In this document: piece by piece, positions 21,677 to 26,341 of the stretch | Layout: every line of letters begins with the position of its first letter | Position numbering within the stretch: the stretch's first letter is position 1 | Source: a virus | DNA: 35,338 nt | Direction: 5' to 3' (one strand) | Virus genome (UHGV): UHGV-0289455 | Notes under the pieces: generated by a model | Database searches by the model: none | Told to the model about the DNA's origin: nothing | Seen by the model: the letters and a program-made list of their open reading frames with translations, nothing else | Position numbers and translations under genes: made by a program

Positions 21677-21879
21677 AACCTCACTCCCAGCGGACGACGG
21701 CGACGGCGGGTTGTCCCCAGTACCGACTCAGCATCATTGATCGCACGGTTAAGCTCATCCAGAGAGGCCGCCGTATATTCAATTCTTCGTCCATCTTTCT
21801 GGACAGACACCACCCGTTTACCGGTTAATAAATCAAGGCGCGCCTGACGCAGCGCCTGCAGTTCAGCGACTGTAACCAT
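21673..21879 (-). CDS. W: head-tail joining protein W
   Basis: 68 aa, ...LLTGKRVVSVQKDGRRIEYTAASLDEL... matches lambda gpW. Confidence 0.9.
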   Translation of the reverse strand: MVTVAELQALRQARLDLLTGKRVVSVQKDGRRIEYTAASLDELNRAINDAESVLGTTRRRRRPLGVRL

Positions 21880-23791
21880 TCACTCCTCCGGACAGCTTCG
21901 CTGCCAGTTCTTTAAGGGTTGGCCGGGTCGTCTCTTCTTCCCGGGATTTTGCCAGTACAGCCAGATCAAGCTGCCAGCGTTGCACGGACACACGTAATGC
22001 CGCGTAGGCATACACCAGGCAGTCCAGCGCTTCGTTACGCCGCTTTTTGTTATCCCACAGCAGACGCATCTTTCCTTTTTCCCACTTCTCCACAAGCTCT
22101 TCCGCGACCAGTTGCTGCGCCTCTGTCTGCGAAAAAATCTCCGGATCATCAGGAAAACGGATGGCATACGACGTGGCTTCATCCGCAGGCGTGGGCTCGG
22201 CTTTCATACGGGCATAGAGAATTTCTTTTGCGGTGTCCGTCCCCACTTCACACAGATAAACGCCCCGCTGATTGCGGGTTTTCGGCATGGTGATCACCGG
22301 CTTGCCATAGACAGACGCGCCTTTTACCGGCAGCACACGGAAAACACCGTGTTTTTTTGACCTCTGGTAGACGATTTCACCATCGATCCCCCCGGTGTCC
22401 CAGCAGACACGGGAAATGGTCATTTCGGTGCCATCCGCATGGCGGTATTTTTTGTTGATCGCCGCATCCACACGTAACAGCGTCTCTTCCTCATCGGGAC
22501 GTCCCATAATGATGATTTTATCCACCAGAAAGGCTTCCTCTCCCGGAGCCCATCCCCAGACATACATCTCAAAACGGTTTCGCTGCGAGTCAATGCCCGC
22601 CGTCAGATAAACCACCCGGGCTGGCACCGCCGCCGTGTAATGCACGACCTTATCCATCAGTACCTGGTGATCGAGTTTTTCGCCCACGGCCTCTTCCCAG
22701 GTCTCGCCCAGCGTGGTGTTCACAAAGGTTTTCAGGCCGTTGGGATCTTTCAGTGCATCCAGCCAGTCATAGACTATCTGTACCCAGGTGGTGAACGGAC
22801 TGTACGCCGTCCAGATATGGAACGTGATGGAGCGCGGCGGCGGAATTTCATTATCCGCGGCGCTGAAAAACGTCAGACCGTCACGGGTCCACATCCACGT
22901 GTTTTCACAGATCCACCGCCCGTTGCTCTGGTCAAGCTCAGACTGATGGATCACGCAGCCATGATGTTCACAGAGGTAGAAAACGCTTTCGGGGCTGTCC
23001 TTCTCCCATTTAAGGCCAAAAGGCGTGGATTCATCGCCAAATTTCAGATACTGCTCCTCCCCACAGTGTGGGCAGGGCACATAAAAACGCATGAAATGCG
23101 CCGACTCGTTGGCCGCTTTTTCGATCTGGCAGGTGCCTTTGATTTTAGGCGTCGAGCCGCGAATGGATTTGGGCCATACAGAGCCCTCAATACGTTTATC
23201 CCCAAGCAGGGTTGGCGAACCCTCTTTTTCGACATCCGGTTCGAACGAGGAAAGTTCGTCATAGCAGACCACGTCCACGGATTTTTCACGGTAGTTTTTG
23301 GCGGCAGCGCCGCCCAGGCACCAGAAGCCCACACCCGATGAAAAGCGTTTCAGCGTGAGAGTATTGTCACGATGTTTACGCCCCAGCCATGGAGAAAGGT
23401 CTTTCAGACATGGCACATCCCGAATCGTCGCCTCCACGTGAGACTTCATAAAATCTTCAGCGGCAGAATCCGTGGGCTGAAAAAGCAGACTGTTTCGGGA
23501 TTTATGCTCAATAAAATACCCGACCACCCCCAGCAACATCTTTGTATAGCCAACACGGGCAGATTTAATCAGATTAACAGTCCGGATCTGATCATTCCCC
23601 ATGCTGTTCATGATGGCGATCTGGAACGGCAGCGTTTTCCATTCTCCCTCACCATATGAAGATTCTTTAGGCAGATAATAATTTTGATCAGCCCATTCAA
23701 CTGGCGTCACCGGCAATGCCCTTATCAGGGGCTGTAATGCTGTTGTGACAGCACTCATCATATTATTCAGTTGTTGCTCTGATATATTCAT
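21863..23791 (-). CDS. A: terminase large subunit A
   Basis: Start placed at MNISEQQL (ATG 23789-23791), the lambda-like N-terminus; ...VEWADQNYYLPKESSYGEGEWKTLPFQIAIMNSMG... and the rest are lambda gpA-like. The tracked ORF is 19 codons longer. Confidence 0.93.
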   Translation of the reverse strand: MNISEQQLNNMMSAVTTALQPLIRALPVTPVEWADQNYYLPKESSYGEGEWKTLPFQIAIMNSMGNDQIRTVNLIKSARVGYTKMLLGVVGYFIEHKSRNSLLFQPTDSAAEDFMKSHVEATIRDVPCLKDLSPWLGRKHRDNTLTLKRFSSGVGFWCLGGAAAKNYREKSVDVVCYDELSSFEPDVEKEGSPTLLGDKRIEGSVWPKSIRGSTPKIKGTCQIEKAANESAHFMRFYVPCPHCGEEQYLKFGDESTPFGLKWEKDSPESVFYLCEHHGCVIHQSELDQSNGRWICENTWMWTRDGLTFFSAADNEIPPPRSITFHIWTAYSPFTTWVQIVYDWLDALKDPNGLKTFVNTTLGETWEEAVGEKLDHQVLMDKVVHYTAAVPARVVYLTAGIDSQRNRFEMYVWGWAPGEEAFLVDKIIIMGRPDEEETLLRVDAAINKKYRHADGTEMTISRVCWDTGGIDGEIVYQRSKKHGVFRVLPVKGASVYGKPVITMPKTRNQRGVYLCEVGTDTAKEILYARMKAEPTPADEATSYAIRFPDDPEIFSQTEAQQLVAEELVEKWEKGKMRLLWDNKKRRNEALDCLVYAYAALRVSVQRWQLDLAVLAKSREEETTRPTLKELAAKLSGGVNGYSR

Positions 23792-24272
23792 CGAGTAAAT
23801 CCGGTAATTTATCCCCCGCCCGCGCACACTGATTTGCCCCCTTCGCAATAAGGGTTTTCAGATGGTCAAGATGGCGCGGTGTTAAATCAGGAAACTGTCG
23901 CTGCATGGATAAAGGGATGGAATCAAGCGTACTGGATAACGCCATTGCCAGCTTGCTGAGGGCAAAAATACAGAACCCGGTATCAATAAGTTTTCCTTTT
24001 GACACCTCATTTTTTAACTGCTGTGTAACAGCCTGTTCTGCTGTCAGTTCCCATCTGGCAATAAGCAATTTCTCCTCATAGTCGTCTTCGCTATCGCCAT
24101 CAGGCACATCGTTTTTACTTCTTCTCAGATACGATATGTAAAAATCGCGCCAGGCATCCAGATCCAGTTGCCCTCGCTTATTCGATATCGGGGCACCCGG
24201 CAATTTCTGCAATCTGCGAAGCTGGCGATCGGTCAGACTTAAATGCCTGGCAACTTCAGTCTGCGTAGCCAC
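23763..24272 (-). CDS. nu1: terminase small subunit (Nu1-like) with divergent N-terminal HTH domain
   Basis: The C-terminal half (FCIFALSKLAMALSSTLDSIPLSMQRQFPDLTPRHLDHLK...LPDLLDEYI) matches lambda Nu1; the N-terminal DNA-binding part (TQTEVARHLSLTDRQLRRL) does not. Overlaps the A start as in lambda. Confidence 0.85.
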   Translation of the reverse strand: MATQTEVARHLSLTDRQLRRLQKLPGAPISNKRGQLDLDAWRDFYISYLRRSKNDVPDGDSEDDYEEKLLIARWELTAEQAVTQQLKNEVSKGKLIDTGFCIFALSKLAMALSSTLDSIPLSMQRQFPDLTPRHLDHLKTLIAKGANQCARAGDKLPDLLDEYIRATTE

Positions 24273-24467
24273 TCCTCACCTCGCAAAAACTCTCACCTCA
24301 CAATCACAACAAAACCGGTCATGTCCGGCTTACATGTCTATTTTTTGCGCATGTCCGGTTCATGGAAAGCATGTTTTTATATTTTTCATATGGTTAACTT
24401 GCAGAGAAACCGGACATGGATCCCGGAAAATTTTCATAAATAGTGAAAATCCGCGAGGTCGCCGCCC
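24273..24467 (-). other. cos: cos region: cosN (12-nt cohesive end GGGCGGCGACCT on the minus strand at 24456-24467) and cosB with three CATGTCCGG repeats
   Basis: The reverse complement of 24421-24467 reads GGGCGGCGACCTCGCGGATTTTCACTATTTATGAAAATTTTCCGG, nearly the lambda left end. Repeats catgtccgg occur near 24323 and 24352, with the inverse ccggacatg near 24410. Confidence 0.85.
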
Positions 24468-24615
24468 CGTAACCTGTTGGATCGACGGAAAGGACCCGAA
24501 AACGAGAATAATTATCACTTACAGCAAGAATCGAATCTGATCTATTATGGTGCTTGCTATTATGTGCCGGCACAAGTGCGTCGTTTACCGTCATTTCACA
24601 CAGAGGCATCATCAA

Positions 24616-24867
24616 ATGAAAATCAGAAATATTCTCGCTATCTCCCTTGCAACATCATCCTTCAGTTGCCTGGCATTTAAATCCTCGCCCAATGTGCTAC
24701 CAGGACCAACGAATCAACTAACTGCGGTAGAAAGTAAAATTATCGGACATTTTTATGCCCCACACAGTGCATTACCCGGAACAACCATCACAGGGACATG
24801 TGACGCCTCCCCCGTCCCGGGATGCACCTGTCCGTTTTGTACTATGCTGCGTAGCCAAAACCGATAA
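24616..24867 (+). CDS. small secreted cysteine-rich protein (moron next to cos)
   Basis: 83-aa ORF with an N-terminal signal-peptide-like segment (MKIRNILAISLATSSFSCLA) and a C-x7-C-x-C-x2-C cluster; opposite strand to the late operon (the orientation bor takes in lambda). No similarity to Bor noticed. Confidence 0.4.
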   Translation: MKIRNILAISLATSSFSCLAFKSSPNVLPGPTNQLTAVESKIIGHFYAPHSALPGTTITGTCDASPVPGCTCPFCTMLRSQNR

Positions 24868-24928
24868 CATCCGCATTTACCTGGTATTACATGATGAGTT
24901 CACGCAGCGACTGATAGAGGAAGGAAAG

Positions 24929-25108
24929 ATGGTTAGTAAAAGCAAGGCGCATTGCCGCCGCATGCTGCAGGCATTGCAACAGACGAGAGCAGGTATTTTT
25001 GACCAGTTGGAAAACTGCCAGCATACTTTGCCCGAGTATATCGCCATCTCATCGGAAACCAGTGCAACTCTTATTCATCGGGTTCCACCAGAGAAAAAGA
25101 AGAAATGA
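24929..25108 (+). CDS. small hypothetical protein (59 aa)
   Basis: ATG preceded by an AGGAAGGA Shine-Dalgarno; followed by a hairpin terminator at 25112-25145. Confidence 0.35.
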   Translation: MVSKSKAHCRRMLQALQQTRAGIFDQLENCQHTLPEYIAISSETSATLIHRVPPEKKKK

Positions 25109-25111
25109 ACA

Positions 25112-25145
25112 GTGAGGCGTTGTGTGGCATACAACGCCTTCTTCC
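25112..25145. terminator. bidirectional rho-independent terminator between convergent genes
   Basis: Stem aggcgttgt/acaacgcct with T-rich runs on both sides. Confidence 0.45.
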
Positions 25146-25230
25146 ATCATTCCTCGTCAGCCATGACAAAAATATAACCGCTGGCTCTTTCATTTTTCTC
25201 CTGCGTCCAGCCCCTCTCTACCTGGAAGCA

Positions 25231-25557
25231 TCAAGGACGTGACGGCGTAAAGATAAATTGTCTCTTCACTCCCTGACAGGGGCGATTCTTTTCAAATCGC
25301 CATTTCGCCATGGCCTTCACCACTTCATCACGAAACAAATTATGAGGCTCTGAGCGGAGAAAAACGATCCGTGTCACAGTCCCATCAGCACCAATATCGA
25401 ACTTAACCTCAACCAGCCCCTTGATATAATTTGCTGCAGCATATTCCGGATATCGTGGATACACCGTCACTAATTGCCGGGGCTCATCAGCTTTTTGCTG
25501 CGAGCATCCCACTGCCAGGACAGATAACAGAAAAAGTAGTAAAAGGCGTCTTTTCAT
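25231..25557 (-). CDS. small lipoprotein consisting of a TonB C-terminal-like domain
   Basis: Start taken at MKRRLLLLFLLSVLAVGCSQQ (lipobox-like AVG-C). The rest (YPRYPEYAAANYIKGLVEVKFDIGADGTVTRIVFLRSEPHNLFRDEVVKAMAKWRFE) aligns by eye with the C-terminal domain of E. coli TonB. Confidence 0.6.
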   Translation of the reverse strand: MKRRLLLLFLLSVLAVGCSQQKADEPRQLVTVYPRYPEYAAANYIKGLVEVKFDIGADGTVTRIVFLRSEPHNLFRDEVVKAMAKWRFEKNRPCQGVKRQFIFTPSRP

Positions 25558-25867
25558 TTTTATTCCTACGGGTCTTATTCTGACAATATATCCTGTGTTC
25601 CAGACTGCCACATCACCACATCCTGTGCCATTATCTGACTCACATTACATACATCGCATCGGGATACAGTAGTAGCACTTTCTGTAATACAGCTTCCTGT
25701 TTCTTCCACCATCGCACCGGGATAAACCCGCGAATCATTAACGCGGTAAAAACCCGGTGTGCATCGTTTTTAATTATCCCCGCACACTCGCGCAGAGGAG
25801 TCTCCCTGTCGGGCTGCGGTCTCTGTTAATGAGGGAATATAGCGACGATACGGCGCATCAACAAAAC

Positions 25868-26341
25868 TTATTTCAGGCACTGAGTGCGGATATAGTCCTG
25901 TGCCCCTTCCAGTTGCTTGTGCATCGTCATCAGCCGCTCTCTGAGGGTGAAATAATCCCGTGTAACGGTGTCTGCCAGTTGGGGGCCGGTTGCATTATCC
26001 ACGCCGGAGGTGGTGGGGGCTTCACGCACGGAGCCTGGACAGGTGGCGTTGATCCGCAGGCGCTTACGACCAGCGGCAACGTCAGCGCGAAGAGTTTCAT
26101 TTTCAGCTCTCGCATCGGCTAATTCCCTCGAGTATTTTGCATCGAGCGCAGCAACATCGCGCTGGCGCACCTGCATATCAGTAATGGTTGCGTTCGCCAG
26201 CTTCAGTTCACTGGCTTTGTTATCGCGCTGCGCTTTGTAGGTAATCGCGTTATCACGGTAATGGTCTGTTGCCATCCACAGCGCACCACAGGCCACCAGC
26301 AGAATAACGATAAACGCGGAAAGCATTCGGTTTATGTTCAC
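25868..26341 (-). CDS. Rz: i-spanin Rz
   Basis: 157 aa, N-terminal TM then ...[59 protein letters not shown]...[24 protein letters not shown] matches lambda Rz. Confidence 0.92.
25930..26115 (-). CDS. Rz1: o-spanin Rz1 (lipoprotein, embedded in Rz in the +1 frame)
   Basis: [22 protein letters not shown]...[30 protein letters not shown] matches lambda Rz1. Confidence 0.9.

Follow-up and report, generated by a model that had tools for sequence, protein, structure and literature searches.

The 35,338-nucleotide virus genome UHGV-0289455 (hereinafter the window, which denotes this entire stretch) is organized as a lambdoid prophage, with the late genes on the minus strand. The segment 24273–25145 encompasses the cohesive end site, cos, and, directly beyond it on the opposite strand, a gene for an exported, cysteine-rich protein of 83 amino acids (aa). 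The phage coordinates follow from the minus-strand reading that starts at 24480 (...ACG, nick, GGGCGGCGACCT, then CGCGG...), so that base pair (bp) 1 of the phage is window position 24467 and bp 12 is position 24456. Downstream of cos, the minus strand carries the genes for the small terminase subunit TerS (Nu1) and gpA (21863–23788), followed by W and the portal gene. The cos region consists of the following features:

24491..24497, minus strand: cosQ heptamer GGGTCCT, the same as the annotated cosQ of phage 21 (OL657228, 42902–42908).
24456..24467, minus strand (read from 24467 to 24456): cosN, with the 12-nucleotide cohesive end GGGCGGCGACCT, a direct reading; the same 12-mer is present in lambda and phage 21.
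24404..24419, minus strand: R3-type TerS site CCATGTCCGGTTTCTC, core at 24410–24418 (bp 50–58), an exact repeat that is invariant in five Escherichia coli cosB variants.
24384..24396 (bp 72–84), minus strand: I1-like site TAACCATATGAAA for the integration host factor (IHF), within an invariant AT-rich block between R3 and R2.
24347..24362, plus strand: R2-type site, inverted relative to R3, core CATGTCCGG at 24350–24358 (bp 110–118), invariant in the five variants.
24311..24333, both strands: R1 region, in which an exact CATGTCCGG (24320–24328, plus strand) overlaps the one-mismatch copy CATGACCGG (24315–24323, minus strand), from the repeat search.
23763..24272, minus strand: Nu1 (TerS), 169 aa, GTG start; residues 1–55 form a distinct predicted helix-turn-helix-wing domain, and residues from about 59 to 169 are the conventional Nu1 C-terminal part.
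23609..23788, minus strand: first 60 codons of gpA (whole gene 21863–23788), the part that is diverged from phage 21 gp2, from identity by block.

The initial annotation described cosN as essentially that of lambda, which is indeed the case: the 12-nucleotide 5' cohesive end is identical, and about four positions differ over bp 1–48. The cosQ heptamer lies about 30 bp upstream of the nick, as in lambda-like cos sites generally, and the right-end 60 bp of phage 21, cosQ included, are identical to the window sequence (60/60). A repeat and pattern search identifies exactly three copies of CATGTCCGG in the 35,338 bp, namely, at 24320 (plus), 24350 (plus) and 24410 (minus); all three are within cosB, at the R1, R2 and R3 positions (bp 140–148, 110–118 and 50–58, respectively). 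Thus, the earlier count of three repeats, two direct and one inverted, holds for the exact copies, but the one-mismatch copy on the minus strand makes four R-like sequences, with R1 in the R2 orientation. The resulting arrangement is a complex cosB, with R3 on the minus strand, R2 and R1 on the plus strand, and an I1-like site between R3 and R2. By hand comparison, this putative IHF site, TAACCATATGAAA, matches the IHF consensus YAANNNNTTGATW at seven of nine positions, which makes it equal in quality to lambda I1, and its location, bp 72–84, corresponds to that of I1 in lambda and phage 21 (bp 74–86).

Comparison of the five E. coli cosB variants shows that R3, R2, the plus-strand R1 and the AT-rich I1 block are invariant, with the variation falling in the spacers. 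In a prophage of STEC409, R3, R2, R1 and the I1 block are unchanged, yet the cohesive end is GGGCGGCAGACG instead of GGGCGGCGACCT; hence cosN and cosB vary independently. In the same prophage, the fourth, minus-strand R copy is degraded. Given that the plus-strand R1 is invariant, the conserved R1 has the orientation of R2, unlike R1 of lambda and phage 21. A scan of positions 23700–25900 against Rfam yields no matches.

Lambda, implied by the initial annotation to be the parental background, has to be replaced in this role by phage 21, to which the flanking DNA is 93–99% identical (OL657228). A megablast search with positions 24421–25145 retrieves phage 21, ev017, Perceval and PhiR57_1 with 99.2–99.6% identity; below 24421, a different set of phages matches (the PhiR12 series, 92%). 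When the window is compared to the left end of phage 21 using blastn, bp 1–41 are 97.6% identical, bp 42–758 show no nucleotide match, and from bp 759, inside gene A, the identity is 92.9%; the right arm is 98.7% identical to that of phage 21. The unmatched stretch of about 717 bp, embedded in DNA that is 93–99% phage 21, covers cosB and Nu1 and extends ~26 codons into A, so that the exchanged unit consists of cosB, the whole of Nu1 and the start of A. At the protein level, gpA is 93% identical to phage 21 gp2 over its entire length; the first three 20-aa blocks match at 7/21, 11/20 and 14/20 positions, and the later blocks at 15–20 of 20. In the lambda/21 hybrids of the Feiss laboratory, the R sites, TerS and the TerS-binding N-terminus of gpA reportedly have to match for packaging to occur. 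A packaging-specificity swap, as initially proposed, is thus borne out by comparison in the sense that a recognition module was exchanged, and this module is larger than cosB and the Nu1 N-terminal domain, to which the proposal was confined. As judged from these alignments, the swap of the packaging-recognition module is well supported.

The replacement of the DNA-binding domain of Nu1, also part of the initial annotation, is apparent from several comparisons. The match to Pfam family PF07471 (Phage_Nu1) is confined to residues 49–150 (model positions 62–163, E-value 1e-18; 67.9 bits, with a cut-off of 30), so that the C-terminal two thirds alone match; the phrog_57 profile matches Nu1 over its full length. 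In BLASTP comparisons with TerS of phages 21 and N15, the alignments, with 40–43% identity, start around residue 59; with phage 21 gp1 in particular, residues 64–166 are aligned and the N-terminal domain is left unaligned. Given that both the Pfam and the BLASTP matches exclude the N-terminus, the N-terminal domain of this protein is a different one. In the AlphaFold2 model of Nu1 from the single sequence, this part consists of helices 4–10 and 15–22, a loop, and a helix 38–54, with a predicted local distance difference test score (pLDDT) of about 80.

A tblastn search started with Nu1 residues 1–77 identifies the PhiR12 phages (99% identity) and, with 45–58% identity, TerS proteins of Aeromonas phage phiARM81ld and its relatives, Pseudomonas LPPA33, Pseudomonas Y8 and E. 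coli 705R4. The sequences at or near the R3 position in four members of this group are as follows:

Window, from bp 50: CATGTCCGGTTTC.
phiARM81ld, from bp 52: CATTTCCGGTTCCGGTT (core CATTTCCGGTTCC).
705R4, directly upstream of its TerS gene: R3-type sequence ATTTCCGGTTCCGGT (core ATTTCCGGTTCC).
LPPA33, directly upstream of its TerS gene: R3-type sequence TTTCCGGTTCCGGTT (core TTTCCGGTTCC).

The core ATnTCCGGTT is common to all four, which share the same family of TerS DNA-binding domains, in contrast to the sequences at the R3 position of lambda (CGTTTCCGTT), phage 21 (CGTGTCGGTA) and N15 (GAGGTTGTTGTT). ATnTCCGGTT is thus retained alongside this TerS domain in related phages, so that the domain and its site vary together. 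The register of the comparison is validated by the agreement of bases 56 and 59 with the published positions that discriminate between lambda and 21 (PMC4669245). The specificity of N15 and Monarch, in which R3 is GAGGTTGTTGTT, can be ruled out for the window. The R-site sequence of phage 21, CrTGTCGG at bp 53–60, is not found at that position either; there is CATGTCCGG at bp 50–58 instead, with an extra C and a 3-bp offset. The combination of this cosB and this Nu1 N-terminal domain is present in 1186 of the 5426 complete E. coli genomes, with two copies in O157:H7. Only the lambda, 21 and N15 packaging specificities are documented in the 2015 paper from the Feiss laboratory (PMC4669245), and no description of an ATnTCCGGTT-type recognition class was found in the later literature.

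These features are compatible with the following scenario. TerS with its different N-terminal domain, predicted to be of the winged-helix type, would bind the CATGTCCGGTT sites, namely, R3, the inverted R2 and R1, and an IHF-type bend between R3 and R2 would place gpA in the position to nick cosN. The phage would then package only DNA bearing this type of cosB and represent a fourth lambda-like class, beside lambda, 21 and N15. That this TerS and its R sites form a distinct recognition class is, from the comparisons above, fairly probable.

The second part of the segment begins immediately beyond cosQ and comprises the following features:

24498..24522, no strand assigned: Fur-box-like operator, with GAAAACGAGAATAATTATC (15/19 consensus positions, 24498–24516) overlapping GAGAATAATTATCACTTAC (14/19); abuts cosQ, 118 nucleotides upstream of the 83-aa gene.
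24616..24867, plus strand: gene for the 83-aa exported Cys-rich protein; signal peptide at residues 1–20 (24616–24675) with predicted cleavage CLA/F, Cys cluster at 24799–24840.
24929..25108, plus strand: 59-aa ORF (open reading frame; WP_000253883.1 of the Prokaryotic Genome Annotation Pipeline, PGAP; phrog_4843), from the PGAP call and the PHROG match; a coding candidate.
25114..25140, plus strand: stem-loop right after the stop of the 59-aa ORF, −19.4 kcal/mol and z −4.2 on the plus strand, −16.8 kcal/mol and z −3.1 on the minus strand.

The 83-aa protein contains a Cys cluster, C62-x7-C70-x-C72-x2-C75. The first homology search with this protein detects relatives of the same length and 54–72% identity in Salmonella, Klebsiella and Citrobacter. 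Profile searches collect 31 representative clusters (first, exhaustive search) and 89 clusters (second search), and every organism name attached to these belongs to Enterobacterales; the second search adds homologs from Serratia, Pantoea, Rahnella, Phytobacter, Superficieibacter and Dryocola, and a scan of genome contigs adds Buttiauxella. The homologs are about 30–72% identical to the window protein (25% at the lowest) and retain its length, the A20/F21 pair and C62, C70, C72 and C75. Among 24 diverse members, seven columns are invariant, namely, A20 and F21, which form an A-x-A/F site of signal peptidase I, C62, G69, C70, C72 and C75; G60, P66, L78, R79 and a central E-S-x-I-x3-F-Y motif are well conserved as well. 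The mature product is therefore expected to be a protein of about 63 aa with four invariant cysteines (C-x7-C-x-C-x2-C). These conserved residues bear out the secreted, Cys-rich nature of the protein noted at the outset, with the signal peptide itself being a prediction. A lipoprotein modification at Cys18 was considered and rejected: distant members have Ala at this position and the invariant site is A-x-A/F, so that the 83-aa protein is not a lipoprotein. Searches of Pfam, NCBIfam, PHROG and PDB with the sequences and profiles of this family reveal no matches; specifically, neither a match to PF06291 nor a lipobox is present, in agreement with the earlier statement that the product is unrelated to Bor.

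The comparison with four orthologs gives about 21–26, 10–15 and 43–53 differences at the first, second and third codon positions, respectively (e.g., 21/15/43), with 26–33 synonymous codon changes. Judging by this substitution pattern and the conservation of its product, the 83-aa ORF is a genuine gene. It is located directly beyond cosQ and transcribed away from cos, against the late transcription; the annotations of phage 21, of LF82/Perceval and of PGAP all miss it. The GenBank entry of phage 21 (OL657228) instead shows the hypothetical ORFs CPT_21_74 and CPT_21_75 on the late strand, corresponding to window positions 24842–25193 (minus). The block 24470–25230 is present at at least 95% identity in 1224 of the 5426 complete E. 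coli genomes, including ST131 EC958, ATCC 25922, NC101 and avian pathogenic E. coli (APEC); the identity of the gene block within E. coli, at least 95% and mostly at least 99%, leaves too little divergence for selection tests. Some database versions of the protein follow the +1 frame for about 12 residues (PEQPSQGHV-TPP) before returning to the original frame and lose Cys62; these could be compensated frameshift alleles or sequencing errors. A further observation is that some long, Asn-rich, eukaryote-like proteins contain four to five tandem copies of P-[IL]-P-G-C-N-C-P-K-C-T-x-L-R-N, which is the conserved C-terminal motif of the 83-aa family.

The 59-aa ORF has a good Shine-Dalgarno sequence and is confined to the near-identical block: in the Klebsiella copy, it is decayed to the extent that the start alone is recognizable, and prophages with a second allele of the 83-aa gene (see below) lack it and have at its position a different small ORF and a DUF3950 gene. 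Hence both small ORFs of the initially proposed opposite-strand pair are present, but the pair is not conserved as a two-gene unit. The hairpin at 25114–25140 probably terminates the plus-strand unit. Its description as a bidirectional terminator is overstated: the stem-loop is strong on both strands, but a modest T-rich tail (TTCTTCC) follows it on the plus strand alone, and a scan for consensus terminators does not call this hairpin. The position and orientation of bor in lambda, to which the locus had been likened, are reproduced roughly; phage 21 carries bor further upstream, and the window is without it (25558–25867 in the comparison with phage 21, where the 98.7% identity extends as far as 25857 and the identity over the Rz region is only 84%).

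The genomic contexts of the 83-aa family outside of the window are diverse:

Pantoea: dksA-like, folE2, a hexapeptide-repeat gene, which we take to be of the gamma-carbonic-anhydrase type, and a thrS paralog on one side; cobW, a fur-family gene and a cysS paralog on the other side.
Superficieibacter: after a thrS paralog, an amidohydrolase (pyrC-like) gene and a delta-aminolevulinic acid dehydratase (hemB-like) gene.
Dryocola: flanked by an ABC (ATP-binding cassette) system of the FecCD type and by one of the ZnuA/ABC-3 type.
Serratia: divergent from an SBP_bac_5 ABC transporter.
Klebsiella IncF plasmids: next to cobW and a gene of the fur family.
Salmonella salamae: beside bor and an omptin gene.
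Salmonella enterica: beside traT.
Phytobacter: beside pagP.

A 64%-identical copy is found on 65 Klebsiella plasmids, most of them large conjugative ones (the one examined is IncF), where it adjoins genes for a cobW-family GTPase and a fur-family repressor and is accompanied by a decayed cos remnant with about 70% identity over cosN and cosQ. Given this remnant, the Klebsiella copy came from a phage, and its cobW/Fur-family context has to be taken with caution. With this reservation, the neighborhoods in Pantoea, Superficieibacter, Dryocola (ZnuA-type cluster) and the Klebsiella plasmids point to zinc starvation.

The 250 nucleotides upstream of the family members at 16 loci were scanned with the gamma-proteobacterial Zur consensus ATGTTATAWTATAACAT. 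The best sites match at 15 of the 17 positions in Phytobacter and Buttiauxella noackiae, at 14 in two Serratia species and Superficieibacter, at 13 in Citrobacter, B. warmboldiae and Dryocola, and at 12 in Pantoea. Half of the loci (8/16) thus reach at least 13/17, and in shuffled upstream regions, at least 13, 14 and 15 matches occur in 1.4%, 0.15% and 0.04% of the trials, respectively; the sites are mostly unique within their 5.6–8.3-kb loci. Such boxes are therefore a property of the family and not of the window copy, which scores 10/17 at best; none of the phage, plasmid and island copies has a Zur-type site in the upstream 250 nucleotides. What the window has in this region is the 15/19 Fur-box-like sequence, identified by consensus; no other site in the 35 kb of the window fits the Fur consensus as well, and the probability of at least 15/19 in a shuffled 250-nucleotide upstream region is about 0.002. 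A second allele of the 83-aa gene, 72% identical, is found at the corresponding place next to cos in further E. coli prophages that likewise encode the 169-aa type of TerS; at the location of the window Fur box, these have AATGATAATAATTATC, which matches 15 of the 16 positions of the Fur core. Downstream of this allele with its near-perfect Fur box come a small ORF resembling a lipoprotein gene (VKYFALISALLLSAC...) and a DUF3950/ylcI gene, with no 59-aa ORF. In these prophages, R1 and R2 deviate at one position each. A search with the sigma-70 promoter consensus gives no convincing candidate, and a hand-picked promoter (CTTACA, 19 nucleotides, TATTAT) is weak and is not claimed here.

From these motifs, we infer Zur control for the chromosomal members of the family and Fur control for the cos-linked copies. 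Under this scenario, the chromosomal ancestors of the 83-aa gene would be under Zur repression and respond to zinc starvation by induction; in the phage-borne copies, a Fur-type operator would have taken the place of Zur control, and lysogens would produce the protein when iron is limiting. The periplasmic product could bind metal through its thiols or serve, in the metal-starved host, as an envelope protein knotted by disulfides.

The account as a whole, namely, a swapped cos cassette next to a metal-regulated exported gene, has in our assessment a somewhat better than even chance of being correct. The more elaborate version, in which a fourth packaging-recognition class is combined with the capture of a four-Cys family of the zinc-starvation (Zur) response and its rewiring to Fur, is doubtful as a joint statement and is proposed tentatively. 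Several observations weigh against these interpretations. The R core differs from that of phage 21 by a single inserted C, so that cross-recognition is conceivable; the orientation of R1 departs from the lambda/21 scheme, and the motif is 3 bp nearer to cosN. A Foldseek search of PDB with the TerS model gives no significant match; the top hits are winged helix-turn-helix (wHTH) regulators of the MerR type (best E-value 0.38), with Rpp (6hlk) of phage-inducible chromosomal islands (PICIs) at rank 34 (E-value 2.6). For the 83-aa protein, the AlphaFold2 model built from the family alignment is uninformative with respect to the fold (pLDDT 47), Cys ligands are uncommon among periplasmic zinc proteins, and the Zur and Fur consensus strings are general ones from the literature rather than derived from a curated matrix. 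Moreover, several horizontally acquired copies (on Salmonella islands and in Rahnella) are preceded by neither a Zur nor a Fur box and adjoin bor, traT or an omptin gene. The specificity of this TerS and its repeats as well as the role of the 83-aa gene are predictions from sequence. With regard to packaging, an alternative is that there is no new specificity, the CATGTCCGG sites being drifted phage 21 R sites and the TerS proteins of both phages cross-recognizing cosB. The R cores indeed share CATGTC..GG with phage 21 R1 and R2, the R3-I1-R2-R1 layout of cosB is that of phage 21, and the remainder of the phage is phage 21-like. Such drift is nevertheless improbable, because the DNA-binding domains of the two TerS proteins cannot be aligned, Nu1 and the start of A have been exchanged together with cosB, as a specificity module would be, and distant phages with this TerS domain keep TCCGGTT and not TGTCGG. 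The 3-bp displacement of the motif points in the same direction, given that shifts of more than 1–2 bp impair lambda according to work cited in PMC4669245.

With regard to the 83-aa gene, the lack of annotation in OL657228, where CPT_21_74 and CPT_21_75 are placed on the late strand, could mean that the small ORFs are annotation noise and the phage 21 record is right. This is hardly credible for the 83-aa ORF, whose length and residues are conserved in 10 or more genera and whose divergence is biased toward synonymous changes; the late-strand ORFs, 24877–25047 and 25071–25193 (the latter is CPT_21_74), have no PHROG match and were rejected as the coding reading of this interval. The 59-aa ORF, with no relatives outside of the near-identical block, is a different matter, and for this ORF alone, noise and a gene are about equally plausible. 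The layout of the 83-aa protein, with a signal peptide, a moderately conserved middle and a most conserved, Cys-rich C-terminus, along with the recurrence of P-x-P-G-C-x-C-P-x-C-T-x-L-R as a repeated module in unrelated long proteins, also brings to mind a pre-pro-peptide from which a C-terminal Cys-rich peptide of about 25 aa is released as a toxin, bacteriocin or signal, similar to the heat-stable enterotoxin (ST) precursors. This is quite unlikely: none of the 24 members matches Pfam, including its enterotoxin and bacteriocin families, four Cys and their spacing are unlike the six-Cys ST toxins, E-S-x-I-x3-F-Y is conserved in the 'pro' part, no processing site is evident, and no export or immunity genes are linked to the members. 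A weightier alternative, possible although not probable, is a host-interaction or envelope-defense factor with structural disulfides, for which metal starvation is a mere cue, the metal not being bound; a precedent for such a cue is PliG, a Zur-regulated lysozyme inhibitor. In the oxidizing periplasm, the four Cys would most simply form two disulfides, horizontally acquired copies adjoin bor and an omptin gene (S. salamae) or traT (S. enterica), a chromosomal copy with a Zur box adjoins pagP in Phytobacter, and the block is widespread (1224/5426 genomes, with ST131, APEC and NC101 among them). Set against this are the absence of similarity to any known inhibitor or resistance protein in the Pfam, NCBIfam and PDB searches and the location of several members in zinc-sparing or zinc-uptake clusters, not in virulence islands.

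Outside of the segment, between Rz and cos, the late strand carries a gene for a lipoprotein with a TonB C-terminal domain (25231..25557, minus strand; PF03544, E-value 7e-13). Its identical homolog, LF82_160 ('TonB fragment'), is expressed 8-fold above the prophage background in LF82 lysogens (PMC9928086), so that this gene behaves as a moron. The label 'Rz-like spanin' that PHROGs attaches to this family looks like a mislabel.

Which prophages, satellites and defective elements a given helper phage can mobilize depends on packaging specificity. A recognition class that is common in E. coli, including the prophage pools of O157:H7, would change the predictions of cross-packaging and of hijacking by PICIs, and would also provide a natural third or fourth comparison point for the co-evolution of wHTH domains and R sites. 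If the proposal is correct, this class is represented in about one fifth of the complete E. coli genomes, O157:H7 included, and is shared with Aeromonas and Pseudomonas phages. By the same token, about 23% of the sequenced E. coli, including lineages of extraintestinal pathogenic E. coli, would possess an envelope function that is induced by metal limitation. Should the 83-aa protein truly be a periplasmic protein under Zur/Fur control, it would add a component to nutritional immunity and show a phage re-wiring a metal-starvation gene of the host.

Each of the two parts of the locus is a variation on a known theme: the first is a cos specificity module of the lambda-like kind, the second a putative moron next to cos. 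Among comparable systems, phage 21 (OL657228, M81255) shares with the window the cohesive end, cosQ, bp 1–41, the R3-I1-R2-R1 layout upstream of the TerS gene, a 93%-identical gpA and a right arm that, the 83-aa gene included, is 98.7–99.6% identical. Compared to the annotated phage 21 sites (R3 at 50–65, R2 at 107–122, R1 at 150–166 and I1 at 74–86), the window R sites are CATGTCCGG rather than CrTGTCGG and start 3 bp nearer to cosN, and the conserved R1 is in the R2 orientation; furthermore, the TerS N-terminal domain is unalignable, the TerS C-terminal domain is 40% identical, and the first ~60 aa of gpA are diverged. Lambda (Nu1 wHTH domain, R sites CGTTTCC, I1) has the same cosN, cosQ, tripartite cosB with an IHF-type site, PF07471 C-terminal family and gpA family, but differs in the R sequence and the TerS DNA-binding domain, and the window is not a lambda derivative. 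N15 and Monarch (R3 is GAGGTTGTTGTT) similarly represent a lambda-like class of their own with their own TerS N-terminal domain. The C-terminal domain of N15 TerS is 43% identical to that of the window protein, and the cosB of phiARM81ld and of 705R4 is short and N15-like, with a single R region just upstream of the TerS start; however, the R sequence of N15 is unrelated and the N-terminal domain is unalignable. Rpp of PICIs is an alternative wHTH module that, next to a conserved cosN, steers the lambda-type terminase to another R3 (PMC9026076). Sequence comparison reveals no match between Rpp and the window TerS, and the structural match lacks significance (rank 34, E-value 2.6); in the window, the domain belongs to a full-length TerS whose gene precedes gpA and the head genes, and not to a satellite protein.

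The 83-aa gene resembles the bor and lom morons of lambda in being a small gene for an exported protein between the lysis genes and cos, transcribed against the late genes and followed by a hairpin; it differs in that its product is unlike Bor and is not a lipoprotein, and in that the family is also chromosomal, with Zur-type operators. ZinT and PliG are accessory periplasmic proteins of the Zur regulon. With these, the 83-aa family has in common a small, Sec-exported product and a gene that lies behind a Zur-type box or in a zinc-starvation cluster; the sequences are unlike, the regulation of the 83-aa family is predicted from motifs, and the 83-aa protein is Cys-based, not His/Asp-based.

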